A DNA stretch of 64,000 nt from Gemmatimonadota bacterium (GCA_963666735.1 OY762926.1:320001-384000), one strand, 5' to 3'; shown: positions 11,851-35,000, numbered from the stretch's first letter. Notes: generated by a model not told the origin, from the sequence alone. Made by a program: numbers and translations.

Positions 11851-12018
11851 ATGAAAGTGATGCTCATCGACGAGACCGCCGGTTCCGGCGGAGACATGCT
11901 GCCGTGGATGTTCCGCAAGCTCGAGGTGGAACAGTGGCCGGCCGAGGTGATCGCGGGCGTCGACCCGCAACTGGAGAAGGCGATCGAGGTCGTGCTGGAA
12001 CAACTCGGGGGGGGTTGA
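11851..12018 (+). pseudogene. Remnant of a tricorn-like S41 peptidase C-terminus with an internal deletion
   Basis: KVMLIDETAGSGGDMLPWMFRKL (catalytic-Ser region) is fused directly to EVEQWPAEVIAGVDPQLEKAIEVVLEQL. The intervening GxRTWGG...GVxPD segment and the whole N-terminus are missing. Confidence 0.75.
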
Positions 12019-12024
12019 TCGCGA

Positions 12025-13098
12025 TCAACCTTCGTCCGCGATCGTGAACAGCCTGAGGCTCCCCGGGTACATCTGCCAGGCCGTATCGTCCAGCACGCGG
12101 CTGCTCCACGCCTCCTCGTGGAGCGGATCGCGCCACAGCACCGTGGTCCGCCCCCCCTCTTCGTAGGGCAGGAACAGGCCGTCCACCGGATCGATCGCCG
12201 GAACGAGCCACACTCCCCGCTCTCCGGCCCGCATGTCCTTGAACCCGGGCGCCCTGACGCCGGGGCGCCCCTCGACGATCCGCGCCATCTCGGCCCGCGT
12301 GCTCTCGACCAGCCACCGGGGTACCGGGATGCGGGAGATGCGGACGATCCTGGGCGGCTCGTACTCCAGCTCGATTCGCCACAGGATCGTCTCCATCGCG
12401 TCGAGGAGGACGACCTCGCCCTTCCGCCCGCCCGACACCACCAGATTAAGGGTGCCTATTCGGCTCCTCCAGGACGCCTCGTACGCCAGTTCCGCGGGAA
12501 TCGGAACCTCGCTCGGGATGTTCAGGGGCCGGTCCCCGGCCGCGTACGCCGTGAGCAGGAAGCCCGGTTCAACGCTCGGTCCGACCGGACCGAGGACATG
12601 GTCGACACCGAATCCGGCCGCGGTCGAGATCACCGGAAGCCGCACGGTCCGCGGCTCGCCCTCTCCGGGAGGGAACCGCACCAGCGCTCCACGGCCGAGG
12701 TCGCCCACCCACAACGCGCCGTCCGGTGCGAACTCGACGCGCATCGGGGATTGAAGAACGTCGGGATCCCCCGGTCCCGAGGGCCCGCCCAGGGTCGCGA
12801 TGTGCTCCCCCTCGGAGCGGAACAATTGGACCCGCCCCGCCACGCGGTCCGCGATCGCGACCGTGTCCCCGAACAGATCGAACCCTCGAGCCGTCTCCAG
12901 GAAGAGGTCGTCCGAGAGGACGCCGCCGGGCGGCAGTTCCCGCACCAGCTCCCTCACCACGACGCTCCTGCTAGAACCGGCATCGGGTCGGCCGCCGGCG
13001 CCACCCTCGCCGCATGCCCACGTCGCCCACGCCGCCGCGACGAGGCCAAGCCGGTGACGGAGGAGAGATGCACCTGCTCCCCGGGTGTCGCTCAACAT
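12025..13098 (-). CDS. Lipoprotein with 6-bladed beta-propeller/NHL-like fold (cassette A)
   Basis: Lipobox-like TWAC; blades IADRVAGRVQLF, GGPSGPGDP, EFAPDGALWVGD; start overlaps the stop of the upstream Cys-rich gene. Confidence 0.8.
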   Translation of the reverse strand: MLSDTRGAGASLLRHRLGLVAAAWATWACGEGGAGGRPDAGSSRSVVVRELVRELPPGGVLSDDLFLETARGFDLFGDTVAIADRVAGRVQLFRSEGEHIATLGGPSGPGDPDVLQSPMRVEFAPDGALWVGDLGRGALVRFPPGEGEPRTVRLPVISTAAGFGVDHVLGPVGPSVEPGFLLTAYAAGDRPLNIPSEVPIPAELAYEASWRSRIGTLNLVVSGGRKGEVVLLDAMETILWRIELEYEPPRIVRISRIPVPRWLVESTRAEMARIVEGRPGVRAPGFKDMRAGERGVWLVPAIDPVDGLFLPYEEGGRTTVLWRDPLHEEAWSSRVLDDTAWQMYPGSLRLFTIADEG

Positions 13099-13559
13099 TC
13101 GTTCAACGTAGTACAGGGATCGGGAGCGGGACCATAAATCGTAATCGCCGAACTGCAGCCGCCGACGGTCGTAAATTCCTCGATTCGACCATCGGCCATC
13201 TCATAAGCGCAGGCACAGACCTCGCAGCTCAAGATGCCAAGGGTGTACGGCACCGGGACATCCATACAGATCCCGCCCACGCGGACGCCACTATCGGGGT
13301 TATTGGGGCCGCCCGAGAGATATGGGGGACAGCCGCCCTGAGCGGCCGCCGCTCCGAGGTCGGCCTCCTCCGCGTGGGCATGTCCGAGCGGCGCGAAGGG
13401 AGCAAGCGCGGACGTGATGGAGAGGAGGAGGGCGGTCGCCACGACTCGGCGGAGCCGCTCCGCACGCGAAGTGCGTGGCGAGATCGCCGAGACTGCAAGA
13501 ACCCCTCTGAGCGCTGCCGAGTGGAACACGACGAAGGAAAACGGCGTGAAGCGGAGCAT
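13092..13559 (-). CDS. Small secreted Cys-rich protein (cassette A)
   Basis: GGGAGG RBS; hydrophobic segment ending AHA; mature part has 8 Cys and ends in Cys; conserved in the duplicate copy. Confidence 0.75.
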   Translation of the reverse strand: MLRFTPFSFVVFHSAALRGVLAVSAISPRTSRAERLRRVVATALLLSITSALAPFAPLGHAHAEEADLGAAAAQGGCPPYLSGGPNNPDSGVRVGGICMDVPVPYTLGILSCEVCACAYEMADGRIEEFTTVGGCSSAITIYGPAPDPCTTLNEC

Positions 13560-13615
13560 GCTTGCCTCCCGGGTCTGAAGTGTGCGTTGCCCGGGACTCG
13601 CTCCAAAATGGCTAC

Positions 13616-13728
13616 CACATCACTCGCCGTTTCGCAACCTGTCGAGTCGTGGTGTGGTGCCACCCCGACCTGGTATCGCCCGAGCGTCATGCCCTCCGGT
13701 CCGCCGGTGTCGGCGCTAACGCTAGCCG
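13616..13728 (-). promoter_or_regulatory. 113-bp element upstream of cassette A, containing a probable promoter
   Basis: Near-identical to 15273-15385; the minus-strand core TTGCGAAACGGCGARTGATGTG also occurs at 17053-17074. Confidence 0.5.
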
Positions 13729-13890
13729 AACTGCCAGATCTGTCATCGGGAGGGATCCGTGCGGCCGATGTCCCTCCTCACCTATCGCGACACGCGCCGC
13801 TGGGCGTCGCGCATGATGGAGCTGGTCTCGAAGCGGCTCATGCCCCCGTACCACCTCGACACGGGCGTCGGAATCCAAGACATCAACGAT
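13729..13890 (+). pseudogene. Fragment of a c-type cytochrome gene paralogous to 30828-32435
   Basis: NCQICHREGSVRPMSLLTYRDTRRWASRMMELVSKRLMPPYHLDTGVGIQDIND aligns with ACVRCHRDNGVAPMPLVAHEDVQPYAS...MPPWYVEKDIGIQHFKDD. There is an in-frame stop just upstream and no start or signal peptide. Confidence 0.75.
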
Positions 13891-14093
13891 CACACTCCAT
13901 CGTGGACGCGCGTTTCCCGATACGCAACGGGCCGTATGCGGGGGGGCGGGTGTGCTGCGGCTGAGGCGGCCTTCGGGCGTTGGAGGGACGGAACCGGTCG
14001 GCTTATCCCGTCGCCGGTGGATACCGGACATCAGCCTTGCGGGCGGACCCGGCCCTCATGGAGCTGCGGGGCGGGCGGTCCGGTCGATTGCGT

Positions 14094-15170
14094 TCAGCGT
14101 TCGTCCGTGACCGTGAACCGCATGAGACTTCCCGGGAACATTAGCCAAGCCGTGTCGTCGTCCAAGATGCGGCTGCTCCACGCCTCCTGGCGCTGCGGGT
14201 CGCGCCACAGCACAGTGGCCCGGCCATCCTCCTCGTAGGGCAGGAATACCCCGTCCACCGGATCAATCGCCGGGACGAGCCACACCCCCCGCTCTCCGGC
14301 CCGCATGTCCTTGAACCCCGGCGCGCTGACACCGGGGCGGCCCGTGACGCGCCGCTCCATATCGGCGCGCGTGCTCTCGACCAGCCAATCGGGTACTGCG
14401 ATGCGGGAGATGCGAACGATCCTGGGCGGATCGTACTCCAGCTCGATTCGCCACAAGATCGTCCGCATCCCGTCGAGGAGGATCACCTCGCCCTCCCGTT
14501 CGACCGACATCACGACATGCAGGGGGCTTATTCGGACTACCGGTCCAAACGCCAACTCCTCGGGAAGCGGAACTTCGTTCGGGATGTTCAGGGGCCCGTC
14601 CGGCAACCCGTACGCCGCAAGCAGAAACCCCGGCTGTGCGCTGAGCCCGATGGCGCCGAGGACATGGTCGACCCCGAATCCAACGGCCGTCGCCATCGCC
14701 GCTCCCGGAAGCCGCGCCGTCTGCGGCTCGCCGCCTTCAGAAGGAAACCGCACGAGCGCTGCCCGCCCGGGATCGCCTACCCATAACGCGCCGTCCGGTG
14801 CAAACTCGACGCGCATCGGGGACTCAAGGATCTCGGGATCCCCCGGCCCCGGAGGGCCGCCCAGGGTCGCGATATGCTCCCCCGACGAGCGGAACAACTG
14901 GACCCGCCCCGCCAAGCGGTCCGCGATCGCGACCGTGTCCCCGAACAGATCGAACCCGTCAGCCGTCTCCAGGAAGAGGTCGTCCGAAAGGACGCCGCCG
15001 GGCGGCAGTTCCCGCACCAGCTCCCTCACCGCGACCTGCCTGCTCGAATCAACATCAAGCGGGCTGTCGGCGGCGCCGTCGCCGCACGCCCAGGTCGTCA
15101 ACGCCGCCATCCCGACGAGGCTAAGCTGTCGGCGGAGGACAGGCGCGCCTGTTCCCCGGATGTCACTCAA
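14094..15170 (-). CDS. Lipoprotein beta-propeller, divergent paralogue (cassette B)
   Basis: 358-aa ORF aligning end-to-end with the 12025-13098 product; TWAC lipobox; TTG start overlapping the upstream TGA. Confidence 0.8.
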   Translation of the reverse strand: MSDIRGTGAPVLRRQLSLVGMAALTTWACGDGAADSPLDVDSSRQVAVRELVRELPPGGVLSDDLFLETADGFDLFGDTVAIADRLAGRVQLFRSSGEHIATLGGPPGPGDPEILESPMRVEFAPDGALWVGDPGRAALVRFPSEGGEPQTARLPGAAMATAVGFGVDHVLGAIGLSAQPGFLLAAYGLPDGPLNIPNEVPLPEELAFGPVVRISPLHVVMSVEREGEVILLDGMRTILWRIELEYDPPRIVRISRIAVPDWLVESTRADMERRVTGRPGVSAPGFKDMRAGERGVWLVPAIDPVDGVFLPYEEDGRATVLWRDPQRQEAWSSRILDDDTAWLMFPGSLMRFTVTDER

Positions 15171-15268
15171 CAGGCGTTCTTCCCAGTGCAGGGACCGGGA
15201 GCGGGACCCTGAATCCTAATCGTCGAACTGCAACCGCTGCTCGTCGAAAAATACTCCGTTGTGCCGGA
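15167..15268 (-). pseudogene. C-terminal remnant of the Cys-rich protein gene (cassette B)
   Basis: SGTTEYFSTSSGCSSTIRIQGPAPGPCTGKNAC* aligns with DGRIEEFTTVGGCSSAITIYGPAPDPCTTLNEC*; preceded by an in-frame TAA, no start codon. Confidence 0.85.
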
Positions 15269-15272
15269 TTAA

Positions 15273-15385
15273 CACATCACTCGCCGTTTCGCAATCTGTC
15301 GAGTCGTGGCGTAGTGCCACCCCGACTTGGTATCGCCCGAGCGTCATGTCCTCCGGTCCGCCGGTGTCGGCGCTAACGCTAGCCG
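15273..15385 (-). repeat. Second copy of the 113-bp cassette-upstream element
   Basis: Matches 13616-13728 with a few substitutions. Confidence 0.92.
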
Positions 15386-15435
15386 GAAGTCGGCGGCTGG
15401 GGCCCTCCCGCGCCGCCATCGGGGTTTGATCGCGA

Positions 15436-16509
15436 TCAACCTTCGTCCGCGATCGTGAACAGCCTGAGGCTGGCCGGGTACATCTGCCAGGCCGTGTCGT
15501 CCAGCACGCGGCTGCCCCACGCCTCCTCGTGGAGCGGATCGCGCCACAGCACCGTGGTCCGGCCCCCCTCTTCGTAGGGCAGGAACAGGCCGTCCACCGG
15601 ATCGATCGCCGGAACGAGCCACACTCCCCGCTCTCCGGCCCGCATGTCCTTGAACCCGGGCGCCCTGACGCCGGGGCGCCCCTCGACGATCCGCGCCATC
15701 TCGGCCCGCGTGCTCTCGACCAGCCACCGGGGTACCGGGATGCGGGAGATGCGGACGATCCTGGGCGGCTCGTACTCCAGCTCGATTCGCCACAGGATCG
15801 TCTCCATCGCGTCGAGGAGGACGACCTCGCCCTTCCGCCCGCCCGACACCACCAGATTAAGGGTGCCTATTCGGCTCCTCCAGGACGCCTCGTACGCCAG
15901 TTCCGCGGGAATCGGAACCTCGCTCGGGATGTTCAGGGGCCGGTCCCCGGCCGCGTACGCCGTGAGCAGGAAGCCCGGTTCAACGCTCGGTCCGACCGGA
16001 CCGAGGACATGGTCGACACCGAATCCGGCCGCGGTCGAGATCACCGGAAGCCGCACGGTCCGCGGCTCGCCCTCTCCGGGAGGGAACCGCACCAGCGCTC
16101 CGCGGCCGAGGTCCCCCACCCACAACGCGCCGTCCGGTGCGAACTCGACGCGCATCGGGGATTGAAGAACGTCGGGATCCCCCGGTCCCGAGGGCCCGCC
16201 CAGGGTCGCGATATGCTCCCCCTCGGAGCGGAACAATTGGACCCGCCCCGCCACGCGGTCCGCGATCGCGACCGTGTCCCCGAACAGATCGAACCCTCGA
16301 GCCGTCTCCAGGAAGAGGTCGTCCGAGAGGACGCCGCCGGGCGGCAGTTCCCGCACCAGCTCCCTCACCACGACGCTCCTGCTAGAACCGGCATCGGGTC
16401 GGCCGCCGGCGCCACCCTCGCCGCATGCCCACGTCGCCCACGCCGCCGCGACGAGGCCAAGCCGGTGACGGAGGAGAGATGCACCTGCTCCCCGGGTGTC
16501 GCTCAACAT
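15436..16509 (-). CDS. Lipoprotein beta-propeller (cassette A')
   Basis: 357 aa; differs from the cassette A copy at two residues (AWSSR/AWGSR and YPGS/YPAS). Confidence 0.8.
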   Translation of the reverse strand: MLSDTRGAGASLLRHRLGLVAAAWATWACGEGGAGGRPDAGSSRSVVVRELVRELPPGGVLSDDLFLETARGFDLFGDTVAIADRVAGRVQLFRSEGEHIATLGGPSGPGDPDVLQSPMRVEFAPDGALWVGDLGRGALVRFPPGEGEPRTVRLPVISTAAGFGVDHVLGPVGPSVEPGFLLTAYAAGDRPLNIPSEVPIPAELAYEASWRSRIGTLNLVVSGGRKGEVVLLDAMETILWRIELEYEPPRIVRISRIPVPRWLVESTRAEMARIVEGRPGVRAPGFKDMRAGERGVWLVPAIDPVDGLFLPYEEGGRTTVLWRDPLHEEAWGSRVLDDTAWQMYPASLRLFTIADEG

Positions 16510-16970
16510 TCGTTCAACGTAGTACAGGGATCGGGAGCGGGACCATAAATCGTAATCGCCGAACTGCAGCCGCCGACGGTCGTAAATTCCTCGATTCGAC
16601 CATCGGCCATCTCATAAGCGCAGGCACAGACCTCGCAGCTCAAGATGCCAAGGGTGTACGGCACCGGGACATCCATACAGATCCCGCCCACGCGGACGCC
16701 ACTATCGGGGTTATTGGGGCCGCCCGAGAGATATGGGGGACAGCCGCCCTGAGCGGCCGCCGCTCCGAGGTCGGCCTCCTCCGCGTGGGCATGTCCGAGC
16801 GGCGCGAAGGGAGCAAGCGCGGACGTGATGGAGAGGAGGAGGGCGGTCGCCACGACTCGGCGGAGCCGCTCCGCACGCGAAGTGCGTGGCGAGATCGCCG
16901 AGACTGCAAGAACCCCTCTGAGCGCTGCCGAGTGGGACGCGACGAAGGAAAACGGCGTGAAGCGGAGCAT
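16503..16970 (-). CDS. Small secreted Cys-rich protein (cassette A')
   Basis: 155 aa; differs from the cassette A copy only in the leader (VF/AS). Confidence 0.75.
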   Translation of the reverse strand: MLRFTPFSFVASHSAALRGVLAVSAISPRTSRAERLRRVVATALLLSITSALAPFAPLGHAHAEEADLGAAAAQGGCPPYLSGGPNNPDSGVRVGGICMDVPVPYTLGILSCEVCACAYEMADGRIEEFTTVGGCSSAITIYGPAPDPCTTLNEC

Positions 16971-17000
16971 GCTTGCCTCCCGGGTCTGAGGTGTGCGTTG

Positions 17001-17039
17001 CCCGGGACTCGCTCCCGGGACTCGCTCCCGGGACTCGCT
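17001..17039. repeat. 13-bp unit CCCGGGACTCGCT repeated three times in the 5' leader of cassette A'
   Basis: Three exact copies here versus one copy at 13590-13602. Confidence 0.95.
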
Positions 17040-17094
17040 CCAAAATGGCTACCACATCATTCGCCGTTTCGCAATACCGGCGAGTCGGAGTGTG

Positions 17095-17466: not shown

Positions 17467-18180
17467 TCAGGTGCAGGTGGAGGGATCGACCGCGATGGTG
17501 ACCGCCTCGGCGGTCAGCGAGTTACGGCTCATCCGCCAGTTGATGAGCGCGTTCGCGCCCAGCCGGCGCGTCTCGGCGATGACCTTCTCGAGCGCTTCCC
17601 GGAAAGTCCCGACCCCGGCGCCGGTGATCGTCGCCTGAACCTGGCCGTGTTCCTCTTCCTTGGGGCAGCGCTCGAGTTCCTGCCAGCTGGTCTCGCAGCG
17701 GACGAGACGCGAGTTCTGCATGTTGATCTGGTTGTCGTCGGCACCGAAGCAGGCCCATATGCGGTCGTCATCGCCGCCACCGCCACCGCCGCCGACGCCG
17801 GCGAGAGAGAACACCAGGTCCAGGCGGGTGATCTCCTCGGTGAGATTGGCCGTTGTGGCGGCTCCTCCCGTGCCCATGAACGCCGGCTGAACCGAGATCT
17901 CGACGCCGAGCGGCACGTAGCACAGCGTGTAGCCGCCGTCCAGCGCCGTCTGGCCCTCCATCTGCCCTTCCTCGCCGTCCTTCTCCCAACTGGCGACGAC
18001 GGTGGCGCTGGGCAGCCCCATCTGCGTGTCCGGGTCGGAGACGAGTCCCCACAGCGCGCCGGTCATGTCCGGCGAGTCCGGACACACCTCGTTGAGTTCC
18101 TGGGCGATGGCGGCGGACCCGTGAAGGCCAGCGCCGACGCAACCCACCGCCATCCCCGAAGCGAATCTTCTCAGCGTCAT
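17467..18180 (-). CDS. Secreted protein with a carboxypeptidase-regulatory-like domain
   Basis: GAGG RBS; signal peptide; GALWGLVSDPDT...SATVVASW...DGGYTLCYVP pattern. Confidence 0.7.
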   Translation of the reverse strand: MTLRRFASGMAVGCVGAGLHGSAAIAQELNEVCPDSPDMTGALWGLVSDPDTQMGLPSATVVASWEKDGEEGQMEGQTALDGGYTLCYVPLGVEISVQPAFMGTGGAATTANLTEEITRLDLVFSLAGVGGGGGGGDDDRIWACFGADDNQINMQNSRLVRCETSWQELERCPKEEEHGQVQATITGAGVGTFREALEKVIAETRRLGANALINWRMSRNSLTAEAVTIAVDPSTCT

Positions 18181-18232
18181 CGTCTTTCCTCTCCCGCGGC
18201 AGCTCTGAATCCGTTGCGCACTGAATTGCGCC

Positions 18233-19355
18233 TCAATTGCTCGTGTACTTCGTGAGTCCGCCCCCGGCGGCGGCCCGCGAGTTCGGTCCCTCCGCAGCAT
18301 AAACGTTCCCGTCCGCATCGACCGCAACACCCTCGCCGGCCTCGCCCTGCGGATCGTCGGATTCGTGCGGCGGGATGAAGGCCGTGACCCGGTCTTCCGA
18401 CGCGTGGCCGATCCGAACGCCCGTCAGCCAGTCCGAGTGCTGGTTGGGGTTCGACTCCGAGTCGATCGCATACACGTTGTCCCCGGCGTCGATGAAGAGC
18501 CCGCTCACGCGGCCGTACTGGTAGTGGGTGTCGAGCAGGTTCCCTTCCTGGTCGAAGATCTGGACGCGGTGGTTACCGCGATCCCGCGACGAAGAGGCGG
18601 CCCTGCGAGTCGAACTCCAGCGCGTGCGGCGTCCGGAATTCGCCCGGGCCGTCGCCGACCACGCCCCACTCCATGATGTACTCGCCGTCGGACGAGAACT
18701 TGATGATGCGGCCGGTCGAGCCCTCGGGCGGGTTCGCGTTCTGCCCGCTGTGGCCGTCCGAAACGAAGATCGATCCGTCGGGCGCCGTGATCACGTCGCA
18801 GGGTTCGTTGAAGAAGGTGCCGGGCTCGCTGCTGCGGACGCCCGCCTGCCCCAGCGTCATGAGCACCTCGCCCCCGGGCGAGAACTTCACGACGGTGTGC
18901 CCCTTGTCCTCCGTTCCCTGGGAATCGGTGATCCACACGTTGCCGTCATCGTCCACGTGGATCCCGTGCGGAAGCACGAAGAGGTCCGCCCCGAAGCTGG
19001 CCAGGATCTCGCCCGTCTCACGGTGGAACTTGAAGACGGGGTCGACGATGTTCTCGGCGCATCCGCCCGCGAGCGCGATCCCGCCGCAGCGGTCGTACGC
19101 CCAGATGTGCCCGTCGGTGGGATCGATGTCGATGCCCGCCGTGGAGCCCCACTCGCGGCCATCCGGAAGCTGGGCCCAATCCTTGATCACGTTGGGCGTG
19201 GGGTTCGGGAGACCCGCCGCCGCCGGATCCATGACCTCGGCCGAATCCACCATCTCCTCCACCGCGGCATCCTCCGCCCCGCAGGCCGCGATGCCAAGGA
19301 ACGCGGCCCCCAGTGCGGTGAGGTGCGCCAGTCCGGTTACGCGCAGGTTCTTCAT
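18233..19355 (-). pseudogene. NHL-repeat lipoprotein (peptidyl-alpha-hydroxyglycine lyase-like), split by a +1 frameshift
   Basis: NHL motifs PHGIHVDDDGNVWITD and GPGEFRTPHAL. Removing one base from the run at 18583-18585 restores LFVADRGNHRVQIFDQ and joins the 18233-18508 ORF. Confidence 0.85.
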
Positions 19356-21519: not shown

Positions 21520-21602
21520 TTGGCGAATGTCGCGGATCGTGATTACTTTGTACCTACGGCGACGAACTACTCGAGCCGGCAACGGTGGCGGAGCGAAGCG
21601 GA

Positions 21603-21854
21603 ATGGAAACGCGGCTCATTCAGATCGGAAACTCCCGCGGGATCCGAATCCCGAAAGCCCTGGTCGAAGCGGCCGGGCTCGATACGCCGCTGCGGCTGAA
21701 GGTTGTGGATTCGGGTCTGCTCATCGAACGCGCGGGCAACCCCAGGGATGGTTGGGCGGAGGCGGCGAAAGAGCTTCGCGACCGTGGTGAGAGCGGACTC
21801 CTGGATGACCCGTCGCCAACGGCCTTCGATGCTTCCGGCTGGGAGTGGGAGTGA
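21603..21854 (+). CDS. mazE: AbrB/MazE-family antitoxin
   Basis: IGNSRGIRIPK swapped-hairpin motif; acidic C-terminus; GTGA overlap with the toxin gene. Confidence 0.9.
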   Translation: METRLIQIGNSRGIRIPKALVEAAGLDTPLRLKVVDSGLLIERAGNPRDGWAEAAKELRDRGESGLLDDPSPTAFDASGWEWE

Positions 21855-22177
21855 CGGAACCGCGACGCGGTGACGTGTATCTGGTTGCCCTCGACCCTAC
21901 CCTCGGCTCGGAAATCAAGAAGACCCGCCCATGCGTCATCGTCTCTCCCGATGACCTGAATCCGACGCTCGGCACCTATCTCGTGGCGCCGATGACCACG
22001 GGCGGCCGTGCCTATGCCTTTCGTATCGCTTGCCGGTTCCGGAACAGAGACGGCTTCGTCGTGGCCGATCAGTTGCGCACCGTCGGCCGCGTCCGCCTGA
22101 TCCGACGAATCGGCCGGTTATCTCACGACGCCATGACCGAGGCTCTCGACGTGCTTCAGCGCATGTTCGCCCCTTGA
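21851..22177 (+). CDS. mazF: PemK/MazF-family endoribonuclease toxin
   Basis: RGDVYLVALDPTLGSEIKKTRPCVIVS and DQLRTV motifs. Confidence 0.92.
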   Translation: MTEPRRGDVYLVALDPTLGSEIKKTRPCVIVSPDDLNPTLGTYLVAPMTTGGRAYAFRIACRFRNRDGFVVADQLRTVGRVRLIRRIGRLSHDAMTEALDVLQRMFAP

Positions 22178-33666: not shown

Positions 33667-33891
33667 ATGATCAGCCTGCGAAGGACTCTTCAAGCCCTCC
33701 TCCTCGCCGCCTGCATGGCGGCCACCGGTATCGCGAGCAATGCGTCTGCGGCGATTAGCGGCGATTGCGACGACGACTGCCCTTGGGATAGCAGCGGCTA
33801 TCTGTCCAGTTGTAACGAGGACGATGTCGGCGGGATCTGGTGCGACTATTCGGACGGTCACTACTACTATAGTCTCGGAGGTAGTTGCTGA
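33667..33891 (+). CDS. Small secreted Cys-rich peptide (cassette C)
   Basis: AAAGGAG RBS; signal peptide (LAAC lipobox or ASA cleavage); acidic/aromatic mature part with 5 Cys, ending in Cys. Confidence 0.75.
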   Translation: MISLRRTLQALLLAACMAATGIASNASAAISGDCDDDCPWDSSGYLSSCNEDDVGGIWCDYSDGHYYYSLGGSC

Positions 33892-35000
33892 ACCGAGGCG
33901 AACCGGTCGGTTCGGTGACGATGCGCCCCTTGGGTCTCGTGCATCGTCCACGGCAGCATGTGCGGCGCGGCTTGGCGTTCGCCCAGTCTGATCGATCCCT
34001 CTCCGTTGCGGGCATCTGCGTGCTCCTGTCCTCGTGCTCTAGTGCGGAGCCGGAGCCGCTGGGGCGTGCGGTGACGCTTGAGCGCGTTCGAACGGTCGTG
34101 CGCCAGGACGCGACTGCGGAGACTGCCTGGCTCAGTCGACCCTCGGGATTGCACTATGACGCCGGCGGTGATCGGCTCTTCGCTTTGGACCGCGATGACC
34201 AGCGCGTGCTTGAATTCACTACCTCCGGGGAGTTCGTTGGCGCTTTCGGTCGGCACGGCGAGGGTCCGGGCGAATTACGCAATATCAGGGCGGTTGGGAT
34301 CGCGGCCGGCAATGTCGTTGTGCTGGACCAGGGGAACAGTAAACTTCTCGTCTTCGACCGCAAGACGCGCGAACCGATGACCGAAGTTCGGCTTACGGGA
34401 CGTGTTCCGATCAACATGGCGACGATCGGCGACACGCTCGTCGCCGTGATTCCCGGCCCCGGCGGAAACCTGTTCGAGCTGTTTTCTTCGGCCGGCCTCA
34501 GCTTGGGCGCGTTCGGCGATGGCGGCTTTCTTGGCGGGTATCCGGGCTATCTCATCGCGGACATTGGGAGCGGTCTGATTGTCGTCGTCAGGCCTGAGCT
34601 CCCCGAAGGTCGGATCTATCGGTTGGATGGATCACCGGTTGAGATCTTCGTGTTCTCGGAGTTGAGTCATGTGCTGGCGGAATGGCGCGACACCTTCGCC
34701 GAAAACGTCCGGCGCCGAATGGGTGCGCTTGCCTCGGCCGACGCCGGACGCATCTCTGCGGGGAAGCGGTACGTGACAAGCCTTGGTGCGGCAGGAGATG
34801 GTTTGTTCTTCGTCGTGGCCGTGCCGGAGAACCTTGACGTTACTCCCAAGGAGATGTGGATTCTCGACAATAGAGGCCGAGTCAAGCAGCGATACGCGTT
34901 CGACCGGCCGTGGGTCGGTGGCCTGACCGCCTCGTTTCCGCGCATTTTCGCGGCAGGGCAGGAAGACGAATACGGGATCCACGAATACCGGATCCCCTGA
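33885..35000 (+). CDS. Lipoprotein 6-bladed beta-propeller (cassette C)
   Basis: LSSC lipobox; FGRHGEGPGEL motif; TTG start overlaps the peptide stop (the true start may be slightly downstream). Confidence 0.8.
   Translation: MLNRGEPVGSVTMRPLGLVHRPRQHVRRGLAFAQSDRSLSVAGICVLLSSCSSAEPEPLGRAVTLERVRTVVRQDATAETAWLSRPSGLHYDAGGDRLFALDRDDQRVLEFTTSGEFVGAFGRHGEGPGELRNIRAVGIAAGNVVVLDQGNSKLLVFDRKTREPMTEVRLTGRVPINMATIGDTLVAVIPGPGGNLFELFSSAGLSLGAFGDGGFLGGYPGYLIADIGSGLIVVVRPELPEGRIYRLDGSPVEIFVFSELSHVLAEWRDTFAENVRRRMGALASADAGRISAGKRYVTSLGAAGDGLFFVVAVPENLDVTPKEMWILDNRGRVKQRYAFDRPWVGGLTASFPRIFAAGQEDEYGIHEYRIP

Follow-up and report, generated by a model that had tools for sequence, protein, structure and literature searches.

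Tandem cassettes of a cysteine-rich exported peptide gene and a six-bladed propeller gene in a Gemmatimonadota genome: a candidate toxin-immunity system

The stretch of DNA analysed here, called the window, comprises 64,000 nucleotides from a Gemmatimonadota bacterium (GCA_963666735.1 OY762926.1:320001-384000) and corresponds to G000:C1:320001-384000 of a single-contig genome of 3.98 Mb. Genomes are labelled by G-numbers (G000 being the window's own), contigs as C1 and loci by L-numbers; positions are window coordinates unless a contig is named. Close homologues are labelled Candidatus Palauibacter (Gemmatimonadota). The window contains an array of three minus-strand units, A, B and A', each based on a gene for a small exported cysteine-rich peptide followed by a gene for a propeller that is probably a lipoprotein. 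A preliminary description made from the sequence had presented these units as a candidate ligand/receptor or toxin/immunity system, and re-reading of the open reading frames (ORFs) places all three where that description had put them:

12025-13098, minus strand: propeller A, 357 amino acids (aa), six-bladed, NHL-like, probable lipoprotein (Cys29)
13092-13559, minus strand: precursor of peptide A, 155 aa, 8 Cys in the mature part, last residue Cys
13609-13728, minus strand: upstream element of A with promoter-like TTGCGA (13637-13632), 17 nt and TAGCCA (13614-13609)
14094-15170, minus strand: orphan propeller B, 358 aa, intact
15167-15268, minus strand: remnant of the B peptide gene, the last 33 codons with 3 Cys, after an in-frame stop, with neither start codon nor signal peptide
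15270-15385, minus strand: upstream element of B (94.8% identity with the A element), with TTGCGA (15294-15289), 17 nt and TAATCC (15271-15266)
15436-16509, minus strand: propeller A', six-bladed, NHL-like, probable lipoprotein, 2 residues unlike A
16503-16970, minus strand: precursor of peptide A', 155 aa, with a putative signal peptide ending AHA, a short acidic pro-segment and a 79-aa core with 8 Cys
17001-17041, minus strand: three copies of a 13-bp leader repeat between the A' promoter-like site and the start codon
17046-17074, minus strand: promoter-like TTGCGA and TAGCCA of A', separated by 17 nt (identified by eye)

The array is not a set of three diversified pairs: over the 1535 nt between the start of the peptide gene and the stop of the propeller gene, A and A' show 10 differences, and they specify the same mature peptide, so that the array amounts to a single duplicated peptide and one orphan propeller. 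Eight cysteines in the mature part and a C-terminal cysteine are true of A and A'; B retains only a remnant, its deletion starting directly behind the promoter-like site and running to the last 33 codons. Peptide stop and propeller start overlap, by 7 nt with an ATG start or by 4 nt with the TTG start that B uses. Propeller B is 73-74% identical to propeller A, and the central divergence between them that had been pointed out is present in the alignment. In G002, G007, G016, G035 and G043, the B-type allele stands behind an intact peptide.

The upstream element claimed to be common to the three units is a 116-bp element in A and B, of which A' has only the promoter-proximal part. The promoter-like spacing is the same in all three units; scans for consensus promoters and for terminators each returned 0 sites, and the promoter-like sites are thus unproven. 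The 13-bp leader unit occurs once in A (about 13591-13603), three times in A' and in at least 36 counted units in G046 (L132); it is also found ahead of two other cassettes in the window's genome (C1:2571681 and 2889831). The repeat could possibly serve slippage-based tuning of expression or act as a tandem operator.

An assembly artefact can be ruled out: contigs from four sequencing runs of two studies, one of the runs possibly being the source of the window's own assembly, cross the junction of the B deletion (15001-15379) as well as the one between B and A (13699-14316) without a single difference, and read depth over the peptide is about twice that of the flank in three of the four runs and about four times in the fourth. 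The sequencing runs listed as holders of the window's DNA include no RNA run. The genes flanking the array are syntenic in many Palauibacter genomes, where they usually lie about 3.2 kb apart. Two further features of the window bear on the history of this site:

11854-12006, plus strand: remnant of a tricorn/S41 protease gene, collapsed to two fused C-terminal pieces
13724-14120, no strand assigned: spacer between B and A, composed of a downstream flank (13884-14120) and a piece of an upstream cytochrome-c-like gene (13724-13893)

The protease gene is intact in the same interval of G008. Among the matches listed, only G008 (one, intact) and G017 (one, broken) carry a cassette at the site of the array. 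In G013, G014, G046 and G047 a cassette lies between a cytochrome-c-like gene and a pyrroloquinoline quinone (PQQ) dehydrogenase gene, and in G002, G035, G043, G007 and G047 at further, different sites. Because the spacer consists of the flanks of the cytochrome/PQQ site, B appears to have been relocated from there, and A to have been duplicated. The tandem accumulation of the preliminary description is not borne out, the array being strain-specific and mostly a recent duplication. The conserved syntenic flank at 17467-18330 (minus strand) encodes an exported protein of 287 aa that contains several Cys and a run of Gly and has a weak YbjQ-like match at its C-terminus (E 0.017).

The AlphaFold2 model of propeller A (pLDDT, the predicted local distance difference test, 85; predicted template modelling score, pTM, 0.84) describes an NHL-like six-bladed beta-propeller with four-stranded blades and the NHL-type motif, and its best structural matches are NHL domains (Z 20.6, root-mean-square deviation (rmsd) 3.5-4.0, 262-265 residues aligned). 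Propellers A and B match no Pfam family, PF17170 DUF5128 included, and A reaches only sub-threshold scores in Pfam and NCBIfam; some paralogues joined by an iterated profile pass the DUF5128 cut-off. A, B and A' are probable lipoproteins: the T-W-A-C29 box is non-canonical at -3, and Cys29 follows a basic and a hydrophobic stretch in 19 of 20 aligned N-termini. Structural neighbours also comprise lactonases and PAL (Z 18.5, rmsd 3.4 over 260 aligned residues), which would suit a propeller that matures the peptide, as a PAL, Vgb lyase or SGL-type enzyme, or that forms a catalytic heterodimer with it, as in methylamine dehydrogenase; loci with several precursors likewise resemble clusters for RiPPs (peptides made by ribosomes and modified after translation). 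Such a role is improbable. Alignments, read without superposition, reveal no conserved His in distant homologues and no His or other metal-ligand set across 28 peptide-linked propellers, for which reason the propeller is probably no enzyme. What these 28 share is only the NHL blade motif and structural Asp, Gly and Trp residues, and E68, D84, D126, D133 and R213 are nearly invariant in the window's propeller subfamily only. Moreover, the predicted binding face is the most variable part of the protein, mature peptide A has no Trp for a tryptophan tryptophylquinone or cysteine tryptophylquinone cofactor, and no gene of the MauG or radical-SAM type turned up next to the cassettes.

Peptide A matches no family in Pfam or NCBIfam, neither it nor the other peptides scanned match NVEALA (PF14055), and it does not match NF033852, the fulvocin C-related family. 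Its AlphaFold model (83 aa) is a small antiparallel beta-sheet whose strands (18-30, 39-49 and 54-61) include a long hairpin. A fold search with this model found no Foldseek match at E 0.001, which speaks neither for a new fold nor for a known one, and the best Z was 5.1, among unrelated cystatin-like and propeller-blade sheets. A profile of relatives with two cysteines reached E 0.13 at best in the PDB. Atlas searches gave no usable match for an 8-Cys homologue and, for a 2-Cys homologue, unnamed Actinomycetota clusters (0.83) and "Toxin ETX/toxin MTX2" (0.76, in the chance range), which are leads only. The 8-Cys profile has 48 matches in 24 of 36 genomes of the genus, and at 27 of the 30 loci fetched, two of them the window's own, a propeller gene lies directly downstream; the three misses are two contig ends and one frameshifted propeller. 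With a wider profile, the peptide was found in 22 of 301 genomes drawn from the Gemmatimonadota and in 3 of 12 families, and all 8 peptide loci from 7 genomes outside the window's order have a propeller downstream. A metagenome scan with the 8-Cys alignment yielded 74 pattern matches, of which 0 were confirmed.

Members of the peptide family have 8, 6 or just 2 Cys and share a core in which the first Cys and Tyr-Ile-Ser are followed by three strands; a variable hairpin separates the first two, the second ends in Tyr, a turn leads to the third, and a closing Cys completes the core. Only some members have a GG ahead of the first Cys. In the 13 2-Cys members measured, out of 22, the hairpin spans about 18-45 residues that alternate between small (Gly/Ser/Thr) and hydrophobic (Val/Ile/Leu). 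Tat export was considered and rejected: a twin Arg is invariant in the 8-Cys alignment, but it is read as the n-region of a Sec signal because relatives vary between KR and RR and lack the Phe-Leu motif.

The cassettes are part of a genome-wide system with many unrelated peptides, which the preliminary description had overlooked although a second pair lies in the window itself:

33667-33891, plus strand: second, unrelated exported peptide, 74 aa, 5 Cys in the core, acidic
33885-35000, plus strand: second propeller lipoprotein ORF, DUF5128 at 34.3 bits (cut-off 22.9)

Paralogues of this pair are found at C1:515870 and 2744498, and the odd cysteine number of its peptide may leave a free thiol over. 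The iterated profile collects 95 propeller-like ORFs in the window's genome, a few of them fragments or ordinary NHL proteins. In a heuristic search that excluded Arg-rich ORFs, a small exported Cys-rich ORF stands directly upstream of 17 of these 95, compared with 4 of 1883 other long ORFs. Conversely, 24 of 28 small exported ORFs with at least 5 Cys have a six-bladed propeller gene on the same strand within 700 bp; random gene sets gave a mean of 0.52 and a maximum of 4 by the same measure (300 draws). A strict second search upstream of 30 unlinked propellers found no peptide, with a filter that may be too strict. Altogether, the genome encodes about 30 distinct peptides of many unrelated scaffolds. 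Related peptides precede related propellers: each of four groups has its own propeller clade, namely the three 5-Cys peptides, the pair of "CW-C" peptides and the two hairpin families, one with 2 Cys and one with 6-8 Cys. Peptide-linked propellers as a whole do not form a single clade; the label, given to 28 of 86 aligned propellers including manual additions, is scattered over the tree (22 label changes against a shuffled mean of 23.6).

In 20 annotated regions, most cassettes consist of just the two genes, inserted among unrelated neighbours, with several of the cassettes near insertion sequence (IS) elements. The additional genes are a DsbA-like and a TlpA-like gene (beside two cassettes), PDZ proteins and YknW-like membrane proteins. 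Exported PDZ-like proteins stand directly ahead of the propeller in one propeller clade (G000:C1 2500266-2500724, 2888960-2889409 and 1474541-1475383), with a peptide gene further upstream at two of the three sites. At L137 (G041:C1:1913000-1923000), four diverged Cys-rich peptide genes follow gyrB in tandem, then one propeller; the gyrB site holds 2-Cys cassettes in several Palauibacter genomes, including the window's own. A lipoprotein-like ORF at G000:C1 1882554-1883051 (plus strand) has 13-14 Cys and long proline runs, the nearest same-strand propeller being 88 kb off.

Acidic, Cys-rich cores, some with an odd number of cysteines, could also belong to metal chelators whose loaded form is recaptured by the propeller. 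This is the least probable of the explanations considered and very unlikely: metal binding requires neither dozens of unrelated scaffolds nor a changing interface, relatives of the window's peptide retain only 2 Cys, and no metal transporter recurs nearby.

Modelling of the cognate pair, as the preliminary description had proposed, predicted a complex: mature peptide A with propeller A scored 0.79 in two of three runs, whereas the best of three controls scored 0.00. The mark applied to such scores is reached by 116 of 157 solved pairs and 2 of 215 mismatched pairs, a calibration that is rough with our own alignments, and close cousins can pass the mark as well; contact agreement across the runs was at least 0% and the partner pLDDT at least 48. 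In the model, peptide strand 54-57 pairs with propeller segments 215-218 and 280-284, and the interface takes in propeller residues 206-218, the very segment that had been flagged as divergent. Together with the propeller behind the peptide at 27 of 30 loci, this supports the idea of cognate pairs.

The surface of the propeller on which the peptide is predicted to sit is its most variable one. Between A and B, 19 of 39 interface positions differ, against 54 of 275 others (Fisher p 2e-4); among non-strand (loop) positions, the figures are 18 of 36 and 33 of 134 (p 0.007). Column entropy across 28 close homologues is 1.46 at the interface and 0.68 elsewhere, and the pooled ratio of non-synonymous to synonymous substitution rates (dN/dS) is 0.64 versus 0.28 in the propeller and 0.65 versus 0.41 in the peptide; these statistics come from kindred sequences and from the same alignment that was fed to the complex model. 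With dN/dS below 1, these values do not show positive selection. Joint diversification is seen when peptide and propeller are compared (mirror-tree Spearman 0.89 for the interface and 0.74 for the rest, from 45 non-independent pairs), but it is inseparable from linkage and, because the two genes are linked, was not counted as co-evolution. Two mosaic propellers, P0007 and P0010, combine B-type ends with an A-type centre or an A-type front with a B-type back, which suggests recombination that exchanges the binding face.

Gene losses in the 8-Cys subfamily are asymmetric: of 15 scorable loci (G034, at a contig end, excluded), 11 have both genes intact, 3 have lost or stopped the peptide while keeping the propeller (B, G014 and G013), 1 has both broken (G017) and 0 show the reverse. 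One of the partner peptides elsewhere in G000 belongs to a bacteriocin-related family, scoring 35.7 bits (cut-off 35) for NF033852, "bacteriocin fulvocin C-related protein":

L028:4465-5097, minus strand: precursor related to fulvocin C (NF033852), with a propeller gene directly downstream and IS elements nearby

This family occurs in 8 of 201 Gemmatimonadota genomes; at its 10 distinct loci, a propeller lies directly downstream in 5 and within 1.5 kb in 7. Membrane proteins resembling YknW/Yip1, far under the NCBIfam cut-off, stand behind the two propellers nearest the window's subfamily (L035:5349-5921 and L037:2758-3393); YknW has a role in peptide resistance.

Another reading is cooperation between the partners instead of opposition. 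The propeller might be a dedicated chaperone, carrier or surface anchor that holds a sticky hairpin peptide in the periplasm until it is displayed or released as an adhesin, fibre subunit or host-directed effector. A handling protein fits the loci with several peptides per propeller at least as well as an immunity protein does, and the DsbA-like and TlpA-like genes, the PDZ proteins between peptide and propeller, translational coupling, the acidity of the peptides and the modelled strand pairing are all compatible with it. Still, intact propellers occur without a peptide, not only in the three decayed cassettes but also as second propellers at C1:3513902 and L110, no intact peptide stands beside a broken propeller in the 8-Cys subfamily, and a general chaperone needs neither a separate propeller clade for each peptide family nor a fast-changing interface. 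We regard a chaperone or carrier as a tentative alternative, with odds clearly against it. The orphan propellers have a different meaning if the peptides serve as diffusible signals or as tags of identity, with the propellers as their receptors in the envelope for kin or niche recognition, in which case orphans such as B would eavesdrop. The allele-specific interface, the multitude of peptides in one genome and their acidic, stable nature suit signalling; the propeller, however, has no signalling domain, no sensor kinase, anti-sigma factor or TonB-dependent receptor recurs beside the cassettes in the annotated regions, and one partner peptide is bacteriocin-related. A receptor function is rather doubtful.

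The explanation ranked first, to which we assign a probability of roughly 45%, is that the cassettes encode polymorphic peptide toxins and their immunity lipoproteins. As in bacteriocin-immunity pairs, adjacent and coupled genes specify a secreted peptide and an envelope protein, and the patchy presence of cassettes at several different sites counts in the same direction. A cassette would be a mobile, translationally coupled pair employed in inter-bacterial competition in the following manner: The small gene would give rise to a Sec-type precursor, from which the signal and perhaps also the acidic pro-segment would be removed. The core presumably folds as a disulfide-locked beta-sheet and may leave the cell via general pathways, since no exporter or protease dedicated to the peptide was found: a class II/IIf exporter (C39 peptidase with an ATP-binding cassette (ABC) domain) was neither seen beside the array nor recurrent in the 20 annotated regions, and the signal is of the Sec type rather than a class IIf double-glycine leader. 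The membrane-anchored propeller of the same cassette may grip one face of the sheet and thus neutralise the peptide in the envelope. Interface residues of both partners would drift faster than the rest, making protection allele-specific, and orphan propellers such as B may be kept as shields against the alleles of neighbours. For the window's peptide family, the likeliest mode of killing would be membrane damage by the variable beta-hairpin.

Several observations weigh against toxin and immunity. The core of peptide A has a net charge of -7 and most detected peptides are acidic, although typical antimicrobial peptides are cationic; the count of acidic peptides is biased, because the detection filter excluded Arg-rich ORFs. 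For about two thirds of the 95 propellers, no peptide was detected, and some propellers have several: four in G041, a trailing one in G033 and two at each of three G000 loci. The three complex runs scored 0.79, 0.00 and 0.79, the model of the peptide itself is of modest confidence (pLDDT 70, pTM 0.54), leaving its own fold uncertain, and dN/dS below 1 throughout speaks for relaxed or mixed selection. Neither hidden Markov models (HMMs) nor fold searches assigned the window's peptide to a family of bacteriocins or pore formers, the 2-Cys relatives have a longer hairpin, and the fulvocin match concerns another peptide and lies barely above its cut-off. The 3:0 asymmetry of losses is small and stems from kindred loci. 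Finally, bacteroidetocins, which are disulfide peptide toxins, have no immunity protein (PMC6671954).

A wider proposal, which we consider possible but doubtful, holds that DUF5128-like propellers are a general binding scaffold for polymorphic, Sec-exported disulfide mini-proteins and that the window's family is a minimal, single-hairpin beta-pore former. If so, one immunity or receptor fold would have been retuned against dozens of unrelated peptide folds, a pore former much smaller than aerolysin-type toxins would be capped by its own propeller, a large propeller family would gain a function and marine Gemmatimonadota would possess a hidden peptide arsenal. The simpler rule that a small exported Cys-rich gene in front encodes the ligand makes testable, by means of two short genes, a propeller family that has 95 profile hits in one genome and to which the literature searched gives no function. 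It also offers a mining handle for disulfide-stabilised peptides missed by Pfam, at about 30 per genome with one family-level match among those scanned. With toxin-immunity pairs, uncultured marine bacteria would yield a new antibacterial peptide class, and with carriers or receptors a new kind of envelope recognition system. Elsewhere in the window, at 21585-22177 (plus strand), adjoining ORFs resemble an AbrB/MazE antitoxin and a PemK/MazF toxin (by eye).

Among the closest known systems is that of NVEALA (PF14055) in Bacteroidota, where a small exported Cys-rich gene likewise precedes a propeller lipoprotein; the preliminary description had drawn this analogy loosely, and the window's peptides have no NVEALA match. 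Of the six-bladed propeller families PF17170 DUF5128 and PF15869 TolB-like, G000 paralogues match DUF5128, some above the cut-off, whereas A and B do not. The literature searched contains no published function for NVEALA or DUF5128 and no description of a peptide-propeller system (main texts, few of them from subscription journals); the words propeller, cysteine, bacteriocin, RiPP and NHL are all absent from the main text of the description of the Palauibacterales (PMC10469786). On sequence grounds, the window's peptide belongs to none of the known families compared here.

Small disulfide-rich chains and propellers are also combined in methylamine dehydrogenase, whose seven-bladed propeller and small disulfide-rich beta chain (MauB and MauA) are exported together; the cassette propeller is six-bladed, the mature peptide lacks Trp and no mauG was seen nearby. 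The pore formers of the aerolysin/ETX-MTX2 type have an insertion hairpin of alternating small and hydrophobic residues. The 2-Cys relatives carry a similar hairpin, with no HMM or fold match to these pore formers, and the window's family differs in having no receptor-binding or cap domains.

The bacteroidetocins, too, are small disulfide-bonded peptides of a Gram-negative phylum with thiol oxidoreductase genes nearby. They have a 15-residue double-glycine leader and an ABC/peptidase exporter of their own (PMC6671954), whereas the cassettes have a Sec-type signal, no exporter seen and a propeller partner. Fulvocin C of Myxococcus fulvus is a disulfide-rich bacteriocin, named as a myxobacterial bacteriocin in PMC8708641; the window's peptide is unrelated to it in sequence, and the G000 partner that belongs to NF033852 precedes a propeller. 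A precedent for immunity by a lipoprotein exists in the Bacteroidales, where BcdI protects against pores of BfCDCL (PMC11169675) and BcpI against BcpT (PMC11901371); "propeller" has 0 occurrences in either main text. These are large protein toxins and not a repertoire of many peptide scaffolds; what they would share with a toxin-immunity cassette is a secreted toxin encoded on mobile DNA next to a lipoprotein that protects the producer.

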